From NCBI RefSeq assembly GCF_036365525.1, contig NW_027141174.1:7440001-7504000 (forward strand): a stretch of 64,000 bases of DNA, read 5' to 3'. The notes under the pieces are model-generated. The model saw only the letters and a program-made list of their open reading frames with translations, was not told the DNA's origin and made no database searches. The position numbers were made by a program, and so were the translations under genes. The stretch comes from Heterodontus francisci. Lineage: Eukaryota. Of the stretch, positions 16,753 to 62,415 are shown in pieces (within the stretch, counting starts at the first letter, position 1; the number at the start of each line of letters is the position of its first letter).

Positions 16753-17041
16753 CAGGAACACCACTGATAGCAAGGATGGGACAGTAAATAAATTGAGTCA
16801 TTCTCAGAGCATAATAGATCCGCCGCTCTAATGTTATCCAAAAATAATCTGCCGTAATCAGGCCAAACAAAGTGGAGAAACCCCTGCTGTCCATTGTTGT
16901 GACATTCCAATCTATTGTTCTCAGATTCTGACCCATTGGTGTAACATTCCAATCTATTGTTCTCAGATTCTGACCCATTGGTGTAACATTCCAATCTATT
17001 GTTCTCAGATTCTGACCCATTGGTGTAACATTCCAATCCAT
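16753..17041 (-). CDS. Exon 1 of a second GPR139-like orphan GPCR (96 codons + 1 nt); exon 2 not in window
   Basis: MDWNVTP(MGQNLRTIDWNVTP)n..MDSRG..RMTQFIYCPILAISGVP ends at a phase-1 donor CCTG|GTAAGT. This parallels LYYLILAGIGVP-G|GTAAGA at 52211. The start ATG is inferred. Confidence 0.8.
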
Positions 17042-17057
17042 TGTTCTCCGATTCTGA
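16891..17057 (-). repeat. 42-bp coding tandem repeat x4 (dimer of a 21-bp subunit)
   Basis: Units start at 16891, 16933, 16975 and 17017 and are nearly identical; they encode MGQNLRTIDWNVTP. Confidence 0.95.
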
Positions 17058-27894: not shown

Positions 27895-30800
27895 GGCAGC
27901 TGCCTAATTGTAGTGCCGACTGCTGATTGCAGCAACAAGCCTCAGTAACAGCGCTGGTGGCAGTTGAAGGTTGTTGAGGTGGAGAGAGGAGCTACAGTTA
28001 GCAAATGAAAGCGTCAAATACAATCACCATTACAGTGAAGAAAGAGACATTTTGTTGGACGCAAGGCTTTTTCTGGAGATCGGTGCTGAACACCAGTAGT
28101 TTGGTCTTGTTTGGTCTGTTGGGGGAGAAACACGTGGCTGGAACAACACGGGGTAGGGATTCCAACTCAGCAGGAATCTGTGCTGCTGCAAAAAACACAC
28201 AGGGAAGCTCCCTCCCCAACCCAATTGCCCAGCCTTGGTTGGCTGAAGCTGCACGGCTAAAGAGATGGAAGGAGATAGATAGTGCCTGGGCAGCTTCAGC
28301 TGACCCAGTTTAAGCCACCTCCCCCAACCAGAAGACCAAAAGGCCAAGATTGTTGGCACAGTCTGTTTTAAGTGTGCTGTGTGCAACACCTCCTGAGAGC
28401 AAGACATCCGTTACAGCCTGTCTTTCCATCTCCTCTGTACCGTCAGCCTCTCCCCTAAACTGTTATTTGTCTGTTTTATTTTAATATACATTCAGGATCT
28501 CTGGTGAATCTTTCAAGTTATTTGTTTGCAGGCCCACAATTCGGGGTGGATTTAGCTCTTGGACCCATGGCACTTCATCACTGATGCTGGGGCCCTCTTC
28601 CAGCTACGCAGCTGCAGCCTCTGTGGCTGCAGCCCCGTCACTCTTTAATTTTATAGCATCCAGCCATGGGGTGAAGATCTATCCCCACCCCAACATGTCC
28701 ATTGAGGCCTGCGTAAAGGCAATGGCAGAGGTTGCCGGCACCTCAGGCATTGTTGCAGCCTCAAAGATGAACGGTAAGGCTGTGTTCTTTCTGAAGACTG
28801 AGATGGCGGTGACCCTCAATGTGGAGGGCACCTTACTGCCAGTGGACCCTCTCGAGACCACTGCGCAGCGGATCATGCAATCAAATGCCCCGCCCTTTAT
28901 TCCCAGTGAGCTCCCCCTCCCCCATTTGCACCATCTCGGGGAGGTAAGGTCGGGATCACCCGAGTCCTGCTCGGTCTTCTGGAGCACAGCCACCGACATG
29001 TCTACTCCTTCTGCCGCTAGCTATTCATGCAGTTGGCATGGGAGGAGGTCTCGGAGGGCCACTTTAGTGTGGAGTTCCAGGCGACGGCCTACCATGTCTT
29101 CTGGACCTCGGACGGGCGCGGTATCATATCTGCAAAGGGCTGGGACACGTTCGTAAGAACTGCCCTAACAGCCCGGCAGCCAGCTCCACTTCGGCGGCCC
29201 AGGGTGGGGTTGCTGCAGCTCCTCCCATTCCCCCTACACCTCCGAAAGACACTATTCAGTCGGTTCTGGAGGGGATGGTTTACATGGCCTCCGTCGGGGA
29301 GGGGTGTGTCTGTCCGAGCGGAAGGAAGGTGCAGAGGAAAATCAAACAACAAGAGGTGCATCTCCTGGACACCATGGCACAACCTGAGCCTGAGCTCACA
29401 CGATGGCCCGCTAACGGGGAATCCCCCGCCCTAGGACTGGGCTCAGGCACAGGGTGACCAAGGAAAAGGAGGGTGCAGAGGCTTAGGCCTCTGCTGACAT
29501 GGAGGTCTCTGAACATCTATGCCCAAGTGGGAAAAAGAGGAGAAGGCACCCCTCTACAGAGGCAACTCAGGACCTTGAGGTGCAGGGGACCATCTGCTGG
29601 AGGGGAGCTGGCTCCTGGTTAGGGTCCCCAGGTACCCCCTGCCACCACCAGCACCAAGGCTGCAAACCCTGGCAGGAGCTCCATAACCATCAGGATAGAG
29701 GGGAGGGGGAGACCCCTGAACATGCAGCCCCTCCTGATGGAACAAATGGCCCACTGCCTGTGATGCTGGAGCCTGGAGATGTTCCTGGAGAAGCCTCCCA
29801 TTCTGCCACTCGGTGGAGTGCACTCAGTGGAGGGGTGGGCAAGATCCCACAGGGTCGGCCTTCCCGGTTACATTCCATCCCCGATCAGGAGATACACGAT
29901 CCCGTTATAACTGAAAATGATGGTCCATCTGCGGGGTCTATGGGCGCTTGCGAGGTGGGAGATGGCCCCCTCTCTCTACCTCTGGTCTCGGCTCTGGCTG
30001 GATTTAAAGAGTCGAGAACCTTCGTCCCCCCTGGACCGCAATTTGGCCTGCGGACGGATTTGGAGGGGGGTCCTCAATCACTGGCGCCCATAGGCTCCAG
30101 TGTCACAGTAGAACCCAGAGAGGACTCCTCCGCCATCGATCCCGGGGGTTGGGATCGTCACCGAGGAAGGACCAGCTGGCCTAGCCGGGATGTAAACCCC
30201 ACAGTGTGTGGTGGGTGTGTCGGCCGCTGGCGGTGACGACCTTGAGGAGGACGGGGACTCGATGTGTGGCACGGAAGACAATCATGATTTCATCACCAGT
30301 GAGGTGGTGGACTCCCTCGTGCCTCCCACTGAGTCTTCTCTCATCCACACGGCAGATCTCTGGGATTTCCTCGCGGCATGTAAGGGTTGCTGCAATAAAG
30401 GTCAGCTGGCTCTCAGACATTCGTCGCATCTGGAGCTGACCATCCGGTCCATACGAGCCACCCTCAAGAAAGCGGGGAATGATGCGGGCGTGAAACTGGC
30501 TGAGAGACGCCAATTTAATGTGCTTTTCAATGGGTTGCTGGAGGAGTGGTAGGCCAGCTGTATTTCCACTCCTTATTCACAGTGAAGTGTTGCTGACGGT
30601 TTTTAAGTACATTTGACATGAAGATAACCATAGTCAGCCTCAGCATCAACGGCAGTAGGGCGTCTAACTGCAGATTTCACAATCTCTCAGTCCTTGGGGT
30701 AGGGAGATATGCGGTAAACATTTGGCAGGAAACCCACACTGTTCCGGGAGACAAAACCACCTGGCTCCTGGAGAGGAAGGATGGGGTCTACATGAGTCAC

Positions 30801-33800
30801 CTCACGCCTATTTCCAGTGGGATGGCTATCTTGTCGGCCCCAACTTTACAGCCGGAGATCTTGGGGTCAAGGAGTTCATGCTGGGCAACTTGCTTCACCT
30901 CACCATTCGCCTGGGTAGCGTTCCACTCCACTTTGTGAACGTGCGCGCGCCTAGGCCGGCGCGTTGCAATCATGCTTCTTTGAAGAAGTGTCCACTCTCA
31001 TGAACCCCATCGATTGCAGCGTGTGCATCATCCTTGGGAGGGGATTTTAACTATATCCTCGAGGTGGGGTATCGGTTCGGTCCCCAGCACGGCCAAGCGT
31101 CGGGTGAGAAGTTATTTGAACTTGGTGGACGTCTGGCGGAACGTCCATCCCGACTTCAGCGCCTTCACATGGAGGTTTGGAAGAGGAAGGTACCGAATCG
31201 ACCGCCTCTACTTTTCACAGGCAAATGTCTCCCGCGTCTTGGCGGCCTCCATGCTGCTGGTGCCGTGCTTGGACCAACACCTGGTGTGCGCGGAGTTCAC
31301 TCCACTCTGCATGCGGGCAGTCCACGTGCTGACACTTTAACAGCCGGCTGCTGGTGTACGAGCGATTCCGCGAGTACTTCCATCGATTCAGGGCCGACTG
31401 GAGAAGGAAGCAATGGGGCATCCCCTTCTTGAGGCTATGGTGGGATGTATGCAATACTCTCATCCGTGTCTTCTGTCAAGTGTACGCGAAGGGGTGGACC
31501 AAGAGGTGTGAAGCCGAGATCGGGCACCTAAAGAGGGAGTCCAGCTTCGGTCAAGCCGCCGCAGACCCGGCCCTGTGGCAGGCGTACAAAGGGAATGAGG
31601 GCGCGCTGAGGGACCTGCAGCTCATAGGGTTCCGAGGTGCCTACTTGAGGTCGCTGATCCAGTCCCTGGAAGATTTTGACGTGCCTCCCCCTTCTTCTAC
31701 TCGCTGGAAAAATGGCGTGGGGTCCATAAGCAGCTCATTTGAGCTGCTAGCCAGCGACAGATCTTCCATGAGGTATCCGGAGGGACTGGGCCTCCTAGCC
31801 CATACCTATTACTGTGCATTGTCCACTCCGGATCTGTCCAGCGAGGACGCGCACAGACTTTTGTGGGAGGACCTGCCGTAGGTCAGCCTGGAGGACATCG
31901 AAGGATTGGAGGCTCTGCTCATGTTGGCAGAGCTGACCGGTGCCTTCTACCAGCTGTCGAGGAACAAATTCCCGGGACTGAGAGGCTGATCGTAGAGTTC
32001 CTCAGGGGGTCTGGGACGTCCTGGGGGATGATTATACGCGTGTCCTGGGGAAAAGCCTGGTGACCGGGGAGATGCCCCTCTCGTGGCACTGGGCAGTCAT
32101 CGTCCTGCGTCCGAAGAGGGGTGATCTCCGCCTGCTTAAAAACTGGCGTCCAGTCTCCCTCCTCGGCACAGATTATATCATCATTTCCCGGGCTGTGTCT
32201 ACCTACCCTGGCTCCGTGCTGGCCCACATGATCCAGCCTGACCAGTTGTACACGGCCCCAGGCTGGTCCATACAGGACAGCGCCTCCTGGTCCAGAACCT
32301 GATACATCTTTCGCAGAGGACTGGTCTGTCCGTCGCCTTTCTCTCCTTCTATTATTCAGCTGGGTGGATCACGAATGTACTCTGCACGCGTTTGGACTCG
32401 GGCTGCATTTTGTGGCCCAGTCCGACTTTCTTACGCCGCCAAAGAGTGTCTGGTGAAAGTTAATAGCTCCTCGATAGCGCCCCCTGTGTTTGGGATAGGA
32501 TTGCATCAGGGGTACTCAATTTCCAGCCAATTGTATACCATTTGCTTGGAGCCATTTCTGTGCCTACTTCACAGGACGTTTCCGGGATTGGCTCTGCACG
32601 GGCCGGCCATGAGCATCCTCATCACAGCTTCCTCTGATGACGTGCTCCTCGCGGTCGCAGATCCCGTTGACTTGCAAACGATCGCCAGCAAACCTTTTCT
32701 ACAGCATCCTCTGCGAGGATCACTTGGGAGAAATGTTCCGGACTCCTGTTGGGTCAGTGGCATATAGACTCCCTAAGAGAGGAGTTAGCATTTTTTGCGT
32801 GGAGCACCACGCACGTCCTCTGTCTGGGAGTCCACCTTAGTCCCGCTAAGGAAGCCTGTGTGGCAAACTGGCAGGAGCTGGACGCGAAGGTCACCACTCA
32901 GCTGGGGCAATGGACAGGACTGCACCGAGTGCTTTCCGACAGGGGCCGAGCACTGGTCATAAACCAACTGGTGGCCTCGCTGCTGTGGCACCGTTTGGTA
33001 TATTTGGCCCCGCCCCTTGCATTCGCCACCAAGATCCAGAAGAAACCAGTCGAATTTTTCTGGGGCAAGGGGAAATGCTGGGGCTCTGCCATGGTCCTGA
33101 ATCTCCCAATTGAGGAGGGCGGCCAGGTTCTGGTGTGCGTCCGCACCCAAGCTGCGACTCTCTACCTTCGGACAATGCAGAGATACCTGTACATCAAGCG
33201 TCCTCCCAGATGGTGTGCGCTGGTGACGTATTTTTTCTGCCAGTGTCCCTGCCTTCAGGACAACAAGCAGCTCCCGGTGGAGACTATAAGCCGTACCTCT
33301 CTGAGGGAGTTGCGTGACTTATACCGGGATCTATTGCGAGTCTGGAACATGGTCGGCTCCAGTCAGAGCACTCCCCTGCTGGCGGAGGAGAGTCCCTCGG
33401 CTATCCGGGCGGCCAACTCGGGGGATGGAGCGGCGGGTGGAGGAGTAGCCGAAGCCCCAGGGACGCCCCTCACTGCGGGTGGTGAGGGGGCTCGGGAATG
33501 CAGAGCGCTCCTGGCCGAGCTGAGCCTGGCTCAGTTGGAGATGTTCATCGGACCCAGGCCCCGAAACCCTCCTTGGGAGTCGGTCCTGCACAATACGAGC
33601 CCTCGGTGCCATCCTAATCAGTGCGAAGGGGTTTCTTGTACGGGCTGCTCCTGTGCACGCCCCACGTCCTCGCCTTTGTCAGCCGGCCGGACACGCCCTG
33701 GTGGTCCATGTTGCCATCTGGCGAGAAACCCCGATGGAGGACTATCTACGTGGGAGTCCTCCCACTTTACATCAGGGACATGGCTCCGGTGGAGGGTGCT

Positions 33801-34350
33801 GCATAGGGCAGTCCTATGCACTAGACTTTTAAGTAGGTTCGTGGACTCCGAGGCTGCTTGCAATTTCTGCAGGCTGGACGAGTCCGTGTTCCACGTAGAT
33901 ATGGAGTGTGCGAGGTTGCAGTCCCTCTTTGAGTATTTGAAGAGGCTGCTCCTCACGTTTTGGCTACACTTCAGCCCCACACTCCTGATCTTTGGGCACC
34001 CGGTGTGGAGGCGCGTGGGCTGGGAGGAGGATCTCCTCGTCGGTCTGCTCCTGGGTCGGTCCAAGGTGGCAATTCACAGGTCCAGGCTGCGGTCCGTCGG
34101 GGGGGTTCGACCGACCTGATTGCCTGCCCCTCTTCTGAGGGTGCAGTCGCGCACAGGAGTCCATGGAGAAGGAGTAAGCGGCATCCGCCGGCACACTGGA
34201 GGCCTTCCACGACTGGTAGACACCGCAGGGGCTGAGAATGGCTTTTTTAATTTGAGTTTTTGTTTTATTTATCTGTTCTTTCAAAAAGCTACTTTAAAAA
34301 GTCTAGAAAGGGAGCCTGGAAGATAAAGGGTCCCTCGACAAGAAAAAAAA
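27895..34350 (+). mobile_element. Near full-length Tx1-clade (L1-group) LINE, both ORFs disrupted
   Basis: ORF1 HGVKIYPHPNMSIEACVKAMAEV..AASKMNGKAVFFLK (~28570-30550). ORF2 MKITIVSLSINGSR..QETH, GGDFN, RIDRLY, KNWRPVSLL, DD motif and C-terminal CxxC..H..C (30618-34240). Poly(A) at 34343-34350. Confidence 0.92.
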
Positions 34351-35127: not shown

Positions 35128-35278
35128 NNNNNNNNNNNNNNNNNNNNNNNNNNNNNNNNNNNNNNNNNNNNNNNNNNNNNNNNNNNNNNNNNNNNNNNNN
35201 NNNNNNNNNNNNNNNNNNNNNNNNNNNNNNNNNNNNNNNNNNNNNNNNNNNNNNNNNNNNNNNNNNNNNNNNNNNNNN
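35128..35278. other. Assembly gap (151 N)
   Basis: Run of n. Confidence 1.
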
Positions 35279-37763: not shown

Positions 37764-38187
37764 TCGTTGTGCAGCTTTTCCAGGAGCACAGGCATTGCGA
37801 GCGAGAAGTGAACAGCTGGGAAGTCAATTTCATCGGGAGTTTCGGTGGAGCAGGGACTGCTGGGTAAGTAGAAACCTATATATTTGGGCTGTGTAAATTC
37901 TCTTACCTTTTCGTTGTGCAGATTTTCCAGGGGCACAGGCATTGCGAGCGAGGAGTGTACAGCTGGGAAGTCAATTTCATCGGGAGTTTCGGTGGAGCAG
38001 GGACTGCTGGGTAAGTAGAAACCTATATATTTGGGCTGTGTAAATTCTCTTACCTTTTCGTTGTGCAGCTTTTCCAGGAGCACAGGCATTGCAAGCCAGG
38101 AGTGAACAGCTGGGAAGTCAATTTCATCGGGAGTTTCGGTGGAGCAGGGACTGCTGGGTAATTAGAAACCTATATATTTGGGCTGTT
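37764..38187 (+). repeat. 147-bp tandem monomers (x2.9) forming the CR1 5' UTR
   Basis: Units start TCGTTGTGCAG at 37764, 37911 and 38058 and are near-identical. Confidence 0.95.
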
Positions 38188-47051: not shown

Positions 47052-47962
47052 TCAGTTGTTTTGCTTGTTCATTAATTGAATAATTGATGCAACTGGATAT
47101 TTCATTGCATTTTTGACCTGCTCTCTGAATTTCGACTGAATCGCCAAATAAATAAACGTGTTTATGCAGCAACTTAAAGTCCGCAACATAAACCCAAATT
47201 CTCCAAATATGTATTCAGAATCGGTGTAATCGCTATGATCTGTTCCTGTAATGTTATAATATAAGAAATCCATAACATACACCAACCACAGAAGTATGAA
47301 GCTGCCAGATATGCTGAAGAGTAAAATCATAGATTTCCTTCTGCTCTCCATCTCTGGATCAGTGTGATTTTCTACCCTGCTCTGACACTTCAGTCCCTTC
47401 CGGACTCGACTGGCCACTAAAACGTGTCTGATTGTCAGAGCGTTGAGCAACAAAACTAAAGTGAATGGGAGCAATGGAGTTAAAACCACAGCAAACCAGT
47501 CAAATCCCACCCATCCGGGTGCAGTATAATAGCTTGGATTTCGATAACAGTCCCATGGCACGTTGTCAATTATCTCTCTCGGTTCAAATATAAAGTAGAA
47601 GGGAACGTTTTTTAAACAGAGAACAATGCAGCTTGTTGCGAGAACCACAGCTGCAGTTGTCTTGGTGCAATATTTTGTTTTTAGCTTCTGGCAACAAATA
47701 GCCACAAATCGATCAAAGGAGAAAGTGACAGTGAACCAGACAGAGCAGTCTGTGCATGCACGACTTAGGACAGCAATAACACTACACACAGGCGTGATGT
47801 CCAGGAAAGATCCCGGGAAATAATAATAACTGATCCGCCACAGGATGACTTCAGAGATAATGACCAGCAGATCCGCCATTGCCATGGCCACCAGGTAGCG
47901 AGTGGTGCAGGTGGAGAGTCCGCACTTTCCCCGGGACAGCAAGCCAATCGCCAGTAAATTAA
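47052..47962 (-). CDS. Exon 2 of an intact GPR139/GPR142-like class A orphan GPCR (325 aa total)
   Basis: Pyrimidine tract plus TCATATAG|TTAATTTACTG acceptor. (V)NLLAIGLLSRGKCGLS; TM2 LVAMAMADLL; TM3 SVWFTVTFSFDRFVAIC; TM5 PLLPFTLVLLLNALTI; TM6 ILLFSISGSFILLW; TM7 SCCINTFIY; helix 8 SKFREQV. Open to the TGA. Confidence 0.93.
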
Positions 47963-48059
47963 CTATATGAAGGAGAAGAAAAAAGAAAAAAACGGTAAAG
48001 TAACTGGTAAAACATTCCCTGTGTCTGATCCAGACAGTAAGGTCTGGATTTTAGCACCA

Positions 48060-51000
48060 ATAATGGTAATTGACACACACTCAATAATTTTTTTTTACCG
48101 TGACAAATACTCCCAGTAATACATGGTCACTGGGTTCAGATGTTCCTCTCCGGTTAGTGACCCACACGCAGAGCAGTTCTGCAGTGAGAGATGGTGCGAA
48201 GATAAATGGCCACTGGAGTCAGGTGTTTCACTCTGGTTAGTCACCAACAGTCACTAAAATTCTACAGTGGCGGGCATGTTCATTAATACATGGTCAATGG
48301 GATCAGGTATTCTACTTAACTTAGTGACCCTCATCGCAGTAAAATTCACAGCAATAGCTACTTCCACTAATACATGGTCACTGGGATCAGGTGTTTCAGT
48401 CTGCTCAGTTACAGACACTAACTGAAATTCTACATTGACAGGTACACCTAGTATTACATTGCCACTGGGTCCAGGTGTTCGACTCCGGTTAGTGACCCAC
48501 ACTCAGTACAATTCTGCAGTGACAGATAGTTCCAGTAATACATGGCCACTGGGATCAGGTGTTCCACTTCAGTTAGTGACGTACAGTCAGTGCAATTATA
48601 CAGTGAAAGATACTCACAACAATGCATGGTCACTGGGATCGATGTTCTGCTTCGTTGAGTAACCCACACTCATTACAATTCTTCAGTGACGGATGGTCCC
48701 AGCGGTACTGGCCACTGTGCTAAGGTGTTTCACTCTGGTTCTTGACTCACACGCAGGACAGTTCTACAGTGACCAATACTCCTAGTAATACATGTTCACT
48801 GGGATTAGGTGTTTCTCACTGGTTGATGACTCACACTTAGTACAATTCCACCGAGACAGTTACTCTCAATAATACATGGACATAGCGATAATGTGTTGCT
48901 CTCTGGTTAGTGACTCACACAGAATAACATTATCCAGTGACCAACACTTTCAATCGTACTTGGCCAGGGAGATCAGTTGTTCCTCTGCAGTTCGTGACCC
49001 ACTCTCAATGCAATTCTACAGTAACAGATCCTCCGAGTAATGCTTGACCACTGGGTTCAAGTGTCCCACACCGGTTTCTGATGCACACACAAGGCAATTC
49101 CTCATTCATAGATTCTCCCAGTGATTATCTGTGCTGCTTCGTTTCGTGCTGCACACACAGAACATACCGGCAGTGAAAAATAAAATAATTAAAATATTAA
49201 AATAATTCAATGTGATCAGCTGTTACACTCCAGTTAGTGAGCCACACTCAGTACAGTTCCACAGTGACCGCTACACCTATTAATACCTGATCACTGTGGT
49301 CAGTCATCCATCCTAGTTCGTGACACAGCCATTCAGCAGAATTCAGCAGTGAAAGATACTTCCAGATATACAGAGCCTCTGGGATCACGTGTACAGCTTT
49401 TGTAAGAGACTCAAACTCCGTTCAATTCTATACCAACGATATCCCCAGTGATACATGATGACTGGGCTCAGGTGATCCACTCCTGTCAGTGATGCAAACT
49501 AAGGACAATTCGATAGTAACTGATACTTCTGGTAATACCTGGTCACTATGGTCAGGTGTTCAACCCCGTTTGGTAACCCACACACACAAATATTCTGCAG
49601 TGACAGGTATTCCCAATGATACATGATCACGGGTGTCAAGCGTTTCACTCTAGTTGGTGACCCACACACAGTGCAATTCTACATTGTCAGATACGCCCCG
49701 CAATATATACTCCCCTCAAGTAGGAATGGCTTTGTGAGGGGCAGGTCATGCCTCACAAGCCTTATTGAATTCGTTGAGGATGTGACAAAACACACTGCTG
49801 AAGGAAGAGCAGTGGAGGTGGTGTATATGGATTTTTAGCAAGGCGTTTGATAAGGTTCCCCATGGTAGGCTCATTCAGAAAGTTAGGAGGCATGGGATCC
49901 AGGGAATTTGGCTGTCTGGATACAGAATTGGCTGGCCCATAGAAGACAGAGGGTGGTTGTAGATGGAAAGTATTCAGCCTGGAGCTCGGTGACCAGTGGT
50001 GTTCGGCAAGGATCTGTTCTGGGACCTCTGCTCTTTGGGATTTTAATAAATGACTTGGATGAGGAAGTGGAAGGCTTGGTTAGCAAGTTTGCCGATGACA
50101 CAAAGTTTGCTGGAATTGTGGATAGTGGGCAGGGCTGTTGTAGGTTGCAACGGGACATTGACAGGATGCAGAGCTGGGCTGAGAAGTGGCAGATGGAGTT
50201 CAACCTCGAAAAGTGTGAAGTGATTCATTTTGGAACGTCGAATTTGAATGCAGAATACAGGCTTAAAGACAGGATTCTTTGCAGTGTGGAGGAACAGAGG
50301 GATCTTGGGGTCCAGGTCCATAGATCGCTCAAAGTTTCCACACAAGTTGATAGGTTTGTTAAGAAGGCGTATGGTGTGTTGGCTTTCATTAACAGGGGGA
50401 TTGAGTTTAAGAGCCGCGAGGTTATGCTGCAGCTCTATAAAGCCCTGGTTTGACCACACTTGGAATATTGTGTTCCGTTCTGGTCGCTTCATTATAGGAA
50501 GGATGTGGAAGCTTTAGAAAGGGTGCAGAGGAGATTTACCAGTATGCTGCCTGGACGAGAGGACATACGAAGGATGGTTGAGGGAGCTAGGGCTTTTCCC
50601 ATGGGAGCGAAGAAGGATGAGAGGTGACTTGATAGAGGGGTACAAGATGATGAGAGGCAGAGATAGAGTGGATAGCCAGAGACTTTTTCCCAGGGCGGAA
50701 AGGGCTATCACCAGGGGGCATAATTTTAAGGTGATTGGAGGTAGGTTTCGGGGAGATGTCAGAGGTAGGTTATTTGCACAGAGAGTGCTGGGTACGTGGA
50801 ATGCACTGCCAGCGGTGGTAGTAGAAGCAGATACATTAGGGACATTTAAGCGACTCTTGTATAGGTACATGGATGATAGTAGAATGAAGGGTATGCAGGT
50901 AGTTTGATCTTAGAGTAGGTTAAAGGGTCGGCACAACATCGTGGGCCGAAGGGCCTGTACTGTGCTTTACTGTTCTATGTTCTGTGTTCTATATTGTCAA

Positions 51001-51920
51001 TGTGATCAGCTGTTCTTCTCCGTTTAGTGACAAAAAATCAGTACAGTTCTTCAGTAAAACATACCCACAGTAATAAATGCGCACAGGGATTCGCTGTTCC
51101 ACATTGGTCAGTGTCGAACATTGAGTAAAATTCTACTGTGGCAGCTACTCTCGGTAATACATGGTCCCTCGTTTAGGTGTTTAACTCCATGGTTCATGTG
51201 TATAAATCTGGGATGAGATCAAACTCAGTGCACAAACAGATACTCCCAGTAATACCTGGTCACTGTGGTCAGGTCTTCCATTCTGGATAGAGACACCCAC
51301 ACTGAGAGCAAGTCTGTCGTGAAAGATACTGCCAGGAATACATAACCATTGGGATCATGTGTTCCTCCCTGACTAGTGACCCAAGCTCAGTACAATTCTA
51401 CAGTGACGGATACTCCTTATGACAGATGCGCGCTGCGATCAGGTGTTCCACTCTGGTTTGTGAGCCACACATGGTACAAATCTGCATTGACATATGATCC
51501 CACTAATACATTATCTGTAGTGTCATGTGTTTCCTTCTGGTTAGTGACCCACAGTCAGTGCAAGTACACAGTGACAGACACTCCCAATAATGCATGACCA
51601 CTGTAATCTTGTGTTCTCACCGGTTGGTGACCACACAAAGTACAAATCTACAGAAATAGATGTTCGCAGTAATATATTGCCAGTTGTGTCATGTGTTCCA
51701 ATGTGGTTCGTGAGCCAAATTTTTTGCAATGCCACAGTGAGAGAAATTCTCAGAAGCACATGTCCACTGCGATCAGGTATTCCAGTCCTGTTGCTGACCC
51801 ACACACACTGCAATTCTGTATTGACATATATTCCCATTAATACATGGTCGCTGTGGTCAGGTGCTGCACATTGTTTAGTGACCCACATTTATTATGATTT
51901 TACACTGACTGATACTGCAA
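48060..51920 (+). repeat. Degenerate 84-bp tandem array (~30 units) in the GPCR intron, split by a CR1
   Basis: ATGGTCACTGGGATCAGGTG-like motif at 48123, 48206, 48290, 48374, 48458, 48542, 48626 and onward. Two blocks, ~48060-49710 and ~50991-51920. Confidence 0.92.
49715..50990 (+). mobile_element. 5'-truncated CR1 LINE within the 84-bp array
   Basis: GFVRGRSCLTSLIEF, GVRQGSVLGPLLF and KFADDTK motifs; tail (TGTTCTA)n at ~50971-50991. Confidence 0.95.
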
Positions 51921-52210
51921 ATACTATCTTGACTGAGAAATTTGCCTTCCGTTTGTTTAATTTAACAGAACAAGATATTCACCTGAAGGCAATAGCTTGA
52001 TAATTTGGAATGCCTGTGTGTTACCAAGAATTTGAACAAATCTACAGAGATAATTCAAGATATTTGAGTTAATAAAGTCATATGTTACTTATCGGGTTTT
52101 CTGCATAACAGCGATTATTAAATCACCACGTAACGCTATCAGTCAACCCATAATACCAGACAGCAGTTCACACACAGACTTACACAACTTCAATGTTGAT
52201 CGTCTCTTAC

Positions 52211-52277
52211 CTGGAACACCAATGCCAGCAAGGATCAGGTAATATAATTTCCTGATACTGTAAACTGTTTCTCTCAT
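52211..52277 (-). CDS. Exon 1 of the intact GPR139-like GPCR
   Basis: AAAATG-initiated MRETVYSIRKLYYLILAGIGVP plus G|GTAAGA phase-1 donor. G+TT gives Val in frame with exon 2 (67+911=978 nt). Confidence 0.9.
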
Positions 52278-57310: not shown

Positions 57311-60300
57311 ATGCTGGAGCTCGCATTACTTAACACCTGAAAAGAAGGGAAAATATCTTGGATTTTCCTGCATTAACGTGCCAGTGGCAGGATGCCAAGG
57401 AACAGTTTGAGAGACATCCCAACGTGTTACAGACATAGTAGCTAACGTACACTGCTGACCTGGTGTGTTTCTGCGTAGGAGGGGCTCAGTCCCAATCCCA
57501 AACCACCCTCTCTCCCTCTCTTCAGGGGAATAGACATCTCTTTCAATCTGGTGTGTGTGGGTTGTGCGCTCTAAATATCTCTATGTCTCAATCTTGATCA
57601 CGTTCAAACCTTTGCTTTCTCAGCGGGATTTGTTTGCAATGGAATGTTTCTGGGAAAATGTCAGTGGAAATAAGAAAGGAAGCTCTGGGATGTTGCTTTA
57701 CCTTTTCTTATGAATCTCTTGCTTTTATCTTATCCAATGTATATTTCCACCTCCTCATGGGGACATTTATTTTACTTTGTAAACTGTAATGATAAGATGC
57801 AAAGGGCATGAGAGAGTTTTCGGATGAGGAATATTATTGGGCAGGTTATTCCTCTTACTTGGACAGAGGCATGCACCCTGCAACAGCATCCAATGGCTCT
57901 CTGTACTTTTCTGTCTGTTTTTAACACTGGGGTGGATTTTCTCTCAAGGAGACTGGGGCTCGATGCCTCGGTTACACGTGTTTCGGTTGGATTTCTGCCC
58001 TTGAGTTTTAAAGTGGTTTAAAGCTTTGGTTACTTTAGACGTGGACTTTCAATGTGACACAGTCATGTTAATCCACTTTGCAGAGTAGGGAATATCCATT
58101 CTTACAAAGTGGATATTGAAGTCATTCGTGAGAAACCATGCGAAGGTACTTTGAAAGGGAATTCAGTCACCCCCCGATTCGGCGATAGACCAGATGAGAC
58201 TCAAGTTCCGTTGTTCACTGTTTTATTGCAAGCATATGCAGGGGAGATCGCATCCATGCAAGATGGCATACAAACTTCCCGAGTGGTTTTGAAACATCGT
58301 TCTTAAACCGTTTTACAGATAACAGTTCATTTGGATTTGCCAACCATTCGGTTACACATTCTGACTCTTTTATCTCTACCCAATTGTGTTTATTAATACA
58401 TACCTAGGTTACCATATTACATTCTAAGCAGGTATACATTATACTATCCAATCAGTAGCAAGGCACCTAAACATGAAACTTTGACTCTTGACTGTTTTTT
58501 GTCACTCATGATAGCTTGTGGGCCATCAGGCCTTCTCCTTTGTTCGCTGTCCTTGTCTTTTTCTCCCCCTTTAGCCCTCCTCCCACTTTAAGGGCCTTGG
58601 CTCCGCCCAATTTGGCCAAACACCAGCGTTGAGAATTTATCCGCTTGTCCTTCGGATGGCCAGTCGTCCAGACTCCTGGAGGAATCCTAAACCGCTAAAC
58701 TGTGTAGTTTAGCCTTTCCTGTAATCCCTGTATTCCTTCTTTGTGTGCACATGGTGGGTCCCGGAAGATATCCTCGGAATGCCATTTTATATTCTTTTAG
58801 GGCTTTCGCTGGTAGTGGCAAAGACAAATGGTCCATACCAATAACCTCAAGCTGAAAATTGTCTTTACCACGTGACGGATTTCCCACTAATTTGTCATCG
58901 CACTGTGGTAGAGTAGGCTGAGGCCAACCTAGCCAATAGTGGCCAGGTCTACTTGGATGCGCTCCCGTATGATTTGTTCTCTCAATGCCCGGGTATACTA
59001 ATGTGCTATATTTGTGGCCTGCTGCATGGCCAATCGCGCTACCCTGCCTTGGGTTTCATTCGTAAATGATGCAACATCCAACCAGGGGCTACATACATAT
59101 CCTGTTGTTTGCCTGGGCAGGTGAGAGTCCCCAAATATAAGGGAGTTCGTCACTTGCATGCAAAAACTGGTGTTAGCTAAGAATTTAAATCCTCCCAATA
59201 CCATTTTATCCTCGATTGTCATAAAACACCGTTGTCTGATTACATCTGAACTGTGTTGAATGCATTATGGATCGGGAGCATGTCGAGCGTGATTCTGCTG
59301 CAATTGGTCATGAACTCTAGGGTACGACAAGTACATCTTTAGTGCTCATCCAAATCGTGGAGTTAACATAAGAGAGGTACCCATGGGATCCTGCACGCTA
59401 AACCGAACCATCCCTTTCTACTCTCAATGACTCAAAGCGATAGCTGATGTTAAAGGAGGTTCCCGTGTGATACACTTGGGCTATTATCACTGGGAATTTA
59501 ATTACCCCGTACGTTCCTCCACTCTGGGGTCGAGTGTAGGTTTCTGAGATTCAGTTGATCGATCGATTCAAACATGTGTCCGGGGACGTTTCCAAACCTG
59601 ATGTCTGCTATATCCGAGTTTATTCCCTCGATCAAATCCAGAACTAACATGTCGCGCACCCTTCCCCTGCTTTGTGAGTCGACAGTATCTACTAGCACTT
59701 GCTTGGTAATATTTATGGCTCTCACTAGTCTTTTGCCTTGTATCCCAGTATCAGTCAGAGCATATTCTGTCCCGGACGCATTGTACCACAGTATTTTGGC
59801 TGTGTCAGCAGCTACTCGTGATGCATAATTGTTTACTTCATGGATCTGAGCAGAGTTTATTACTGAATATGTGCTTCCAAACAGTCCCCCTATGTCTGAC
59901 ACCAAAGTCCTTGTCCATTTTTCCCGTCTCCTAATTCCTGGGGAAATTCGAGACTTGTAATCCCCAATGAGCTGTCCTAATTGGTATTTAGCTCATCTGA
60001 TTGAACTCTGGTGATCCCCACACGGTCCTTCTGATATAGTCACCAGGTTCGTGATATTGTCAATCACTTCCAGAGAAGCCATGGTAACGTCATGCAACAG
60101 GGGTTTAGCCTTCCCTACCCTAACTATCCCGTCTGGAAGGGGGTGGGAGAGAGGGTTGTCATTCTTGGACAGCGAGTCAGCCTTTGATACTCACAAGTAC
60201 TCAAATTATAATATTGTGTAACATAACATTCATGCCTATTTATCACATATTTACACACTTCCTGACAATACTGGCCATCAAGATCCAGTTCCCAAACGAA

Positions 60301-62415
60301 GGGGGGCAGATCATTCCGTCCGGCTGTGATGTTTACTTCATGAACGATGGTGCTGTCTGCGTTATTTGTTCGACACCCATAATACCATTTACCCAACCCC
60401 ATCACATTATTTTGGAAACATTTACGGTTTGGTTCCCAGACTCTTCTCTCGTGTGTCTGGGTGGTGACTTCATCTGTAATCCAGGTATTCCGCTGCTTTA
60501 CCCATTACCTCCTCCGGGGAGTGGAGCGTATTGTCTTGGGTGCAGGCAGGTGTTGCTGTGCACATGTACAGTCGATGCCTCCCACGTCACTACCGATCCG
60601 CTCAGGATAAGGAGATACCTGCAACGATATTAACATCAGCTCCCATCGCCCGGGTCGCCATCAGATTTCTCGGTTTCTATATACAGTTTCAACCGTACAT
60701 AATGTTTCCATTTACTTCCCGTTTTCAATTCTATGAGCACACACACATCACCTGTCATAATGACCTCATATGGTCCATGCCATTGGGGTTGAAGTCCGCC
60801 ACGTTCTGGCCTCAATCTGACCATTACCTTATCACTACCTGTGGAACCTTCTGTTTTTTTCCAGCTGCTGATGCAATTCTATGTCCTTAGCTGCCTATCG
60901 TTCCGAAACCTCTTGTCAGAGCTTGTGCAGCTATTTACTTATTTCTCTGACCTACTCTCAGATTCTGCCTTTAAGCAGGCCTGTGTCCATCCGACCATTA
61001 TTCCTTCTGGTAACTGTGTTTCCCGTCCTGTCATCAGCCCAAATTGAGTAAATCCTGTCTTCTTATTTCGGGTGGCCCGCAGGCACATCAGAATGCTGGG
61101 TAAAACTGTTGTCCAGCTGTTCCCTGTTTCTGGTATTGCATTAGCTATAGAGGTTTTAAAAGTCATCTTCATTCTTTCTACCATAGCTTTGAGGATGATA
61201 CGGGATGTGTAACTTTTATTTCATCCCCAGAATTCCTGTATTAACTCTTGCATCAGCCCGATATAAATGACAATTCCCATTTATTATAATCCTATTTCAT
61301 TCATGAGCCCTAGATAAACTGCACAGTCATAATACTTCAAAATAGAAATCAAACATTCCCATTTGATTCCAGGCATTGCCATATTATTCCCCTCTATCCT
61401 AGATGACATTCTTATTTCTTCAAAGTAACTTGCTAAATTACACTGGATTTCGACATCTCAGATTGTTGCTGAAGCGACAGATTTTTATCAATGTTCCATT
61501 TCATATCTCTCCAAATAAACGTTGTTTTTTATACATTTTTATACAACCAAAATGATTCCAAATTCTAATTCACAGCTATAAATACTTAAAAGGTTTGTTT
61601 CTCAACTTAACAGGTTAATTAACCTTAATAGTATGAACTTTGTTGAGATTATTAACTTATAATACTTAGTAACTACACACACAACAGAATAACATGTGCT
61701 CTTTTTTTAAAGATAGGTAGACCTTATTTTTCCTGTTCTTTCTTCAGACGCCTTTTCAAATGACAGTAATAAAACCAAAAAGTAAAAAAAAGTTATTTAA
61801 CATTCTTACAACAAAAGATTTAACACCACCTTCTGACACAATTTTAATCTTTCCCATATCTCCTTTTCTTATCCTTCTCTCCAAAAAAACAATATTTAAT
61901 TTCTGACATTGACTACTTTAAAACGGTCAGTAAAACATGTCTTCAAATTTAAACGGCAAAATAAAGCAATAGCAGATTTTAAACGTTGGTCCAACTAAAG
62001 CAGTGTTTTAAACTTCAAATTGGATTTCTGCCAGACATCTTCAGACGTTCAAGGCTGAAGCTTATCTCATAGAAAATTGTTCATTGCTGTTTTACAGTTT
62101 CCAAACCAACTTTTAAAATAAAAACAAAAGTTTAAAACTTTAAACAAATCTATTTTATATTGCATTCCTGGGAGCACAATCTTAAATTGAAATGAACATT
62201 TGCAACAATAATTTTCACACACATTCAATTCCAAACAACTTAGAAAATTGATTCCTGTAATGGGTTAAAAATTAAATGTACCAAAATCTGTGTCAAACTC
62301 CCTGTTCTGATGCCAAGGAATACATACAGATTGAAGTATTTCACAGCCAAAATGTGACTCAAGGTTCTCATAAACTATACGTTGTAAAAATGGAACAATG
62401 GGTACAATGCAGAAT

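Follow-up and report, generated by a model that had tools for sequence, protein, structure and literature searches.

The question raised by this locus is what kind of receptor is encoded by a shark gene that carries the name 'probable GPR139'. The window, the whole stretch of DNA analyzed here, comprises 64,000 nucleotides of Heterodontus francisci (NCBI RefSeq assembly GCF_036365525.1, contig NW_027141174.1, positions 7,440,001 to 7,504,000), and it harbors an intact class A (rhodopsin-like) G-protein coupled receptor (GPCR) gene. This gene is already annotated, and its automatic name misleads. Sequence comparisons place it in a large birth-and-death family of elasmobranch receptors. The new finding of the present study is that a fast-evolving ligand pocket is combined with slow intracellular loops in the shark paralogues, and that this pattern is reversed in the amphibian orthologues of the sister gene.

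The receptor gene consists of two exons on the minus strand (978 nt, 325 amino acids, and 0 internal stops). Exon 1 (52211..52277; 22 codons plus 1 nt) contains the ATG, a short N-terminus, and the first half of transmembrane helix (TM) 1, and is followed by a GT donor. A phase 1 intron of 4.25 kb (47963..52210, minus strand), which contains a degenerate 84-bp tandem repeat and a fragment of a long interspersed nuclear element (LINE), is located inside TM1. Exon 2 (47052..47962) extends from the remainder of TM1 through the stop codon and encodes DRF (3.49-3.51), NTFIY in TM7, C3.25, C45.50, and W6.48; P6.50 is not present. A splice check of the window revealed that a single GT/AG pairing fits close to the proposed exon ends. 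The spliced protein showed 0 differences from entry P0279, which represents three RefSeq models of H. francisci (XP_067882255.1, XP_067882896.1, and XP_067883922.1), all named 'probable G-protein coupled receptor 139', and six differences from entry P0003. Pfam assigned exon 2 to 7tm_1 at 78 bits (cut-off 30.5). The original prediction of a complete 325-residue seven-transmembrane gene with an intron in TM1 was confirmed by the splice pairing, the RefSeq identity, and the 7tm_1 match, and the DRF, NTFIY, and ILLWLV motifs and the N-terminus of approximately 10 residues that it listed were all read in the translation. An annotation artefact was ruled out by the identity of the spliced product to the RefSeq model, and a pseudogene was ruled out for the window gene, in which 8/8 core residues are intact. 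The AlphaFold model of P0003 was moderate (predicted local distance difference test score [pLDDT] 67.8, predicted TM-score [pTM] 0.64) and showed seven long helices and a hairpin in the second extracellular loop (ECL2). Two further features of the protein were observed. The second intracellular loop (ICL2; protein positions 114-116) has no proline where one is usually present and is shorter by one residue than its GPR139 counterpart, and position 5.58 (protein position 196) is an invariant N, not Y. These alterations may influence the choice of G protein.

The name GPR139 points to the right neighborhood because, at E<=1e-8, the family profile matched no PDB molecule other than human GPR139 (E 2e-14). 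GPR139 was also the top match of entries P0246, P0257, and P0236. When the window protein was the lone query, the ghrelin receptor matched as well as GPR139. Identity to human GPR139 was approximately 22-25%; it was 22% in a structural alignment (7vui), and approximately 73 identities over 299 profile positions were counted by eye. GPR139 orthologues of human and zebrafish share 70% identity, and the published Trp/Phe site of GPR139 consists of E108, F109, H187, W241, R244, and N271 (both from sections of PMC7318219). At this site (E3.32, F3.33, H5.43, W6.48, R6.51, and N7.38/39), the window protein has S89, R90, A180, W248, Y251, and F280, and, thus, keeps one of the six residues (W6.48 only). 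The amphibian sister gene described below has Y, F, Q, W, K, and N at these positions in 20/20 clusters and is closer to GPR139. The possibility that the gene is the shark orthologue of GPR139 or GPR142 and acts as a Trp/Phe sensor agrees with the RefSeq name and with GPR139 being the only PDB match of the profile. However, we rejected GPR139 orthology based on 22% versus 70% identity, the retention of 1/6 site residues, and the presence of many copies rather than one, and the equal match of the ghrelin receptor to the single query also counts against this possibility, which we regard as having almost no chance of being correct. The original prediction that the gene is not a 1:1 GPR139 orthologue is in accordance with the low identity, the lost site residues, and the at least 85 H. 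francisci clusters; GPR139-like sensing of aromatic amino acids is not supported because only W6.48 of the six binding residues is kept.

To define the family, 5296 candidates (clustered at 90% identity) were searched with exon 2, and 2019 proteins matched at E<=0.001. The composition and variation of the family were assessed on the best 120 of these 2019 clusters, picked by closeness to the query. All 120 were from sharks (85 H. francisci, 16 Pristiophorus, 6 Heptranchias, 6 Cetorhinus, 4 Scyliorhinus torazame, and 3 Mustelus). The H. francisci count of 85 is a floor because it was taken from the best 120 of 2019 only. After clustering at 50% identity, 119 representatives remained at E<=1e-30, and the 19 that were looked up were all from sharks, skates, or rays (19/19). 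No chimaera (holocephalan) was present among the 139 named family rows (120 plus 19), which were not chosen to test for its absence. In a FastTree phylogeny of the best 120, the Pristiophorus rows (16/16) and the Heptranchias rows (6/6) each formed one clade, and the Scyliorhinus and Mustelus rows were scattered over the tree. The combination of species-specific clades and scattered rows therefore suggests ongoing lineage-specific duplication upon an older subfamily scaffold. Contig sets with a guessed RNA status (four sets from two samples) contained many paralogous pieces over exon 2, and two such contigs began matching at the exon-2 acceptor (47963/47964), one of them also near 52275. These contigs hint weakly at spliced paralogues, and we did not use them as evidence because their RNA status was guessed.

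The genomic arrangement of the family members was also considered. In a hand tally of the scaffold names given per cluster, one 74.5-Mb scaffold appeared in 29 of the 85 H. francisci clusters, a second in 12, and a third in 8; the other clusters were dispersed over many more scaffolds. Within the window, a divergent paralogous exon 1 is present at 16753..16894 on the minus strand, with an intact GT donor at 16753 and in-frame ATGs at 16894 and 16801. Its position-specific scoring matrix (PSSM) score was 24.8, which was reached by 0/100 shuffles (shuffle maximum, 4.0). It is located 35.5 kb from the first exon 1, on the same strand and downstream of the intact gene, and the donor and the PSSM score against shuffles bear out the earlier claim of such an exon approximately 35 kb away in the same orientation. 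A 42-bp unit repeated four times (16891-17057; 96% match) is found immediately upstream of the second exon 1 and in frame with it. No exon 2 for this exon was detected anywhere in the 64-kb window using tblastn and the family hidden Markov model; its partner is lost or lies more than 16.7 kb further on. The window by itself does not show a cluster because the second exon 1 has no exon 2 there. Therefore, the proposed tandem cluster did not stand at the level of the window, which contains one gene and one fragment, but did at the level of scaffolds, with 29/85 H. francisci clusters on one of them. Entries P0004 and P0005 carry a repeated TM1-TM4 piece, and adjacent copies are therefore suggested.

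The distribution of variation within the protein carries the argument on function. Among the 120 shark clusters (76% mean identity), entropy was 1.54 bits at 26 generic class A pocket positions, 0.91 bits at other outer-helix positions (pocket versus these, p=0.0025), 0.44 bits in the inner helices, and 0.46 bits in the intracellular loops. A set of 47 deeper representatives sharing 46% identity gave the same order, which was reversed in the 20 amphibian clusters (81% identity): entropy there was 0.10 bits for the pocket and 0.86 bits for the loops. Tree-aware site rates gave the same result: in the 85 H. francisci paralogues, the rate was 1.62 in the pocket and 0.69 in the loops (p=0.002; pocket versus other outer positions, p=0.025), whereas the amphibian orthologues showed 0.30 in the pocket and 2.00 in the loops (p=1.2e-5). 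None of the 25 most variable columns fell outside the pocket, outer helices, and extracellular loops, and changes crossed chemical classes (class entropy, 0.93 vs 0.50). There were also 115 distinct nine-site pocket signatures in the 120 clusters, to which we gave no weight because these sites were picked for variability. Eight core residues were all kept in 116/120 clusters, and the core appears to be under purifying selection because only 4/120 deviate at any of them. The pocket being the most variable part and the signaling side the least suggests that the family is likely a large set of chemical sensors, and we consider a ligand-diversified repertoire to be highly probable.

A mostly neutral amplification needs to be considered here. 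Under this explanation, segmental duplication in repeat-rich DNA multiplied the gene, the pocket drifts because its ligand is lost or redundant, and folding and constitutive signaling, or gene conversion, hold the inner face alike. The position of the gene among decayed LINEs, the three identical RefSeq proteins and the decaying near-copies, and the nearby exon-1 fragment without an exon 2 fit such a process, and constitutive activity has been described for GPR139 (PMC7318219). However, neutral drift does not readily account for the retention of 8/8 core residues in 116/120 clusters, the persistence of the family, with the same pattern, in both sharks and batoids at identities as low as 30-46%, or a pocket that is more variable than the neighboring outer-helix positions (p=0.0025 to 0.025). 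We regard it as improbable. A number of points nevertheless weigh against a repertoire diversified for ligands. In the own 90% cluster of the gene (9 members, 96-99.6% identity), the pocket is unchanged, 5/9 members show decay at D2.50Y (three) or Y7.53C (two), and the normal exon 1 is missing in 7/9 models; these losses in a recent subclade therefore suggest that many new copies die. Haplotigs could inflate copy numbers. The 26 pocket positions are those of a generic class A list numbered from the alignment, the 120 sequences are the ones nearest to the query, and the amphibian tree is ninefold shorter than the shark tree (2.5 vs 23.2). Moreover, the variability of the pocket may reflect relaxed constraint instead of selection, and this or gene conversion could explain some of the pattern.

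The reversed pattern in amphibians raises the issue of where the family came from. The nearest relatives outside elasmobranchs were 'probable GPR139' orphans of salamanders, the coelacanth, teleosts, and lancelets. A search with a salamander protein gave 25 matches among 1675 candidates, i.e., 20 amphibian clusters, 1 sturgeon, and 4 elasmobranch; no amniote or teleost was present among these 25 matches of a word-limited search. The 20 amphibian clusters each carry a different species label, and the sister gene of amphibians and sturgeon is apparently single-copy. A conserved orphan receptor with a GPR139-like pocket that barely varies is represented by P0246 and P0299-P0318, which come from frogs, salamanders, a caecilian, and sturgeon. 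Two trees were constructed (77 rows with LG+G4 and 31 rows with a mixture model), neither of which included GPR139 and GPR142 themselves; a search for them with a lancelet relative yielded 10 proteins and no named vertebrate. In the larger tree, 28/59 family rows were assumed to be elasmobranch, and family rows were limited to those spanning profile positions 30-290. The elasmobranch rows formed one clade (support, 98/84 and 96/91 in the two trees) that was sister to amphibians plus sturgeon (100/99), and coelacanth P0236 and teleost P0245 and P0257 grouped with the family to the exclusion of the lancelet sequences. The lineage is older than the split between cartilaginous and bony fishes because amphibians and sturgeon hold the sister gene. 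These trees indicate that what arose in elasmobranchs is the expansion, and that the lineage itself was not born in sharks. Accordingly, the previously proposed lineage-specific birth-and-death family holds as an elasmobranch expansion (85 clusters and species clades), but not as a shark-born lineage.

The apparently single sister gene also bears on the idea of an internal or social peptide system, in which the paralogues read the shark's own peptides (neuropeptides, pheromones, or gamete signals). No matching expanded ligand family is known to us, although no search for one was made, and this counts against the idea. In its favor, GPR139/142 have been proposed as orthologues of MIP receptors (passages of PMC7270403), GPR139 responds to ACTH/MSH-related peptides (passages of PMC7318219), and several catshark V2Rs are testis-enriched (passages of PMC11979771). 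However, internal-peptide receptors are normally stable 1:1 orthologues (sections of PMC2576165), as the amphibian sister gene is, and we consider such a system to be quite unlikely.

Returning to a ligand-diversified repertoire, we propose the following sequence of events. An ancestral GPR139-related receptor would have read one conserved internal ligand because the amphibian pocket is near-invariant and keeps F3.33, W6.48, N7.39, and a basic residue at 6.51. The gene probably stayed single in amphibians and sturgeon and was duplicated repeatedly in elasmobranchs, in which each copy would have remodeled its pocket and retained its G-protein face, such that many inputs lead to one output. Different pockets would then correspond to different ligands. 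We speculate that the ligands come from the environment and are read by sensory cells, and that the output is Gq/11-Ca2+ by analogy because GPR139 couples mainly to Gq/11 (PMC7318219). With slightly less than even confidence, we predict that the family senses external chemicals or peptides at the surfaces of the body, e.g., in the nose, mouth, gill, or skin. Further points speak against the sensory part of this proposal. The top-50 genes specific to catshark 'brain & olfactory epithelium' include no GPCR, and most catshark olfactory receptor (OR) genes are expressed outside the nose, as given in sections of PMC11979771; we infer that sparse receptors rarely rank among top-50 specific genes. 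In addition, chimeric gene models with TRIM, integrin alpha-X-like, or Ig domains are a weak pointer to immune neighborhoods.

These chimeras relate to an alternative, an immune or barrier repertoire, in which leukocytes, mast-like cells, or nociceptors would carry the receptors and use them to detect peptides of microbial origin or from damage. MRGPRs and formyl-peptide receptors detect such peptides in tetrapods. The same pattern of pocket and loop sequences would be expected, and, according to PMC8455134, cartilaginous fishes lack MAS1 and its relatives. Peptide receptors ranked top in the fold search, and the model has the ECL2 hairpin; however, this search cannot tell class A receptors apart because all of them score alike (TM-score approximately 0.7). 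The models P0126, P0192, P0209, P0224, P0240, P0241, and P0298 fuse family members to unrelated domains (hemopexin, sodium channel, integrin alpha-X-like, trypsin, Ig, uromodulin-like, and TRIM), and 3 of the 20 long family models scanned are fused to TRIM, integrin alpha-X-like, or Ig (with two TRIM-fused isoforms counted as one). The neighbors look arbitrary because other chimeras carry sodium channel, trypsin, hemopexin, and uromodulin-like domains. The fused models are probably annotation read-through, with copies adjoining many unrelated genes. We consider an immune or barrier repertoire to be rather unlikely, although more probable than neutral amplification.

Regarding the surroundings of the gene, no other host gene was recognized in the window. 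Among the other long open reading frames (ORFs) tested (n=13), six encode LINE-type domains (reverse transcriptase [RT], endonuclease, and GDSL esterase) and seven had no Pfam match. The degenerate 84-bp tandem repeat of the receptor intron spans 48096-51900, is split by the LINE fragment at approximately 49720-50990, and, within the window, is nearly restricted to this intron. On the minus strand, 57900-61300 was judged by eye to be a decayed long terminal repeat (LTR)-retroelement or endogenous-retrovirus-like remnant, with an integrase-like stretch, envelope-like frames in which a basic cleavage-like site is followed by a hydrophobic stretch, stops, and frameshifts; searches of it against Pfam and Atlas gave no match. 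On the plus strand, 28400-34300 is a GC-rich (56-58%) broken retrotransposon, which we take to resemble a Tx1/L1-type element, and four ORFs within it had no match in Pfam. An assembly gap of 151 bases is present at 35128-35278, and a 147-bp unit repeated 2.9 times (37764-38186) precedes a LINE whose frames encode GDSL esterase, endonuclease, and RT.

A description of the elasmobranch expansion was not found in full-text literature searches, for which most subscription journals were outside coverage, and supplements of PMC8455134 (12/24 files), PMC6504862, PMC10529500, and PMC10115646 gave no match to a family expansion. PMC8455134 and PMC11979771 describe a 'relative paucity' of GPCRs and ORs in cartilaginous fishes, and the catshark has approximately 51 known olfactory-type genes in total (summed here from PMC11979771). 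In H. francisci alone, 85 or more distinct clusters have been hidden beneath the automatic name 'probable GPR139'. They are likely a class A repertoire of the sensor type that expanded in an unexpected clade, which bears on the question of how sharks sense chemicals with few known receptors. We tentatively raise the less likely possibility that this is an overlooked elasmobranch chemosensory family built from a GPR139 paralogue and independent of OR, TAAR, V1R, V2R, and T1R/T2R. If so, the horn-shark family would outnumber all known olfactory families of the catshark combined, the view of cartilaginous fishes as poor in chemoreceptor GPCRs would be overturned, and vertebrates would have a counterpart of nematode srw. 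A second lead is the amphibian sister gene, the pocket of which is frozen; the ligand of this gene would mark the starting point of the expansion, and the Xenopus orphan is a candidate for deorphanization.

Among known receptors, human GPR139 and GPR142 share with the shark gene the TM1 motif YY..L..G.P.N, N at 5.58, N...Y without proline in TM7, W6.48, and a two-exon gene. In contrast, human GPR139 has P6.50, which is absent from the window protein, C3.25 and the ECL2 cysteine of the window protein are unaligned in GPR139, and GPR139 has one copy whereas the shark family has many. Rinne et al. (2019; PMC6504862) named non-mammalian relatives of GPR139/142 GPR210A/B; the word 'shark' is absent from the main text of that study. 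By name and tree, GPR210A/B and a gar/coelacanth subtype appear to belong to the same wider clade, and GPR210-type genes differ in that R6.51 is kept. The amphibian and sturgeon 'probable GPR139' (e.g., XP_069092602, Xenopus P0302, and Acipenser P0318) has the ICL2 and third intracellular loop (ICL3) motifs in common with the shark family, but is represented by one cluster per named species and has variable loops around its near-invariant pocket, the reverse of the shark pattern.

Clustered lineage-specific copies, a short N-terminus, a variable pocket, and a conserved signaling face characterize OR, TAAR, V1R/ORA, FPR, and MRGPR families and are also found in the shark family. However, these families belong to other receptor clades, and it is for these families that sensory or immune expression and ligands have been demonstrated. 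Regarding descent from OR, TAAR, V1R, or srw, only 7tm_1 was found by Pfam (exon 2 at E<=0.1 and P0003 at E<=0.001); to our knowledge, TAAR cannot be told apart by a Pfam test of its own. Features of the window protein resemble clusters that carry Srw domains. Nematode srw, as portrayed in sections of PMC2576165, is related to FMRFamide/myosuppressin receptors, shows high gain and loss, and is speculated to detect environmental peptides. As a birth-and-death expansion that came out of a related receptor clade, it is a precedent for the shark family; its origin was independent, and exon 2 had no match to PF10324 at E<=0.1. By analogy, a fast pocket on a slow signaling face fits a birth-and-death repertoire with one common transducer for many ligands, as in TAARs, MRGPRs, and nematode srw.

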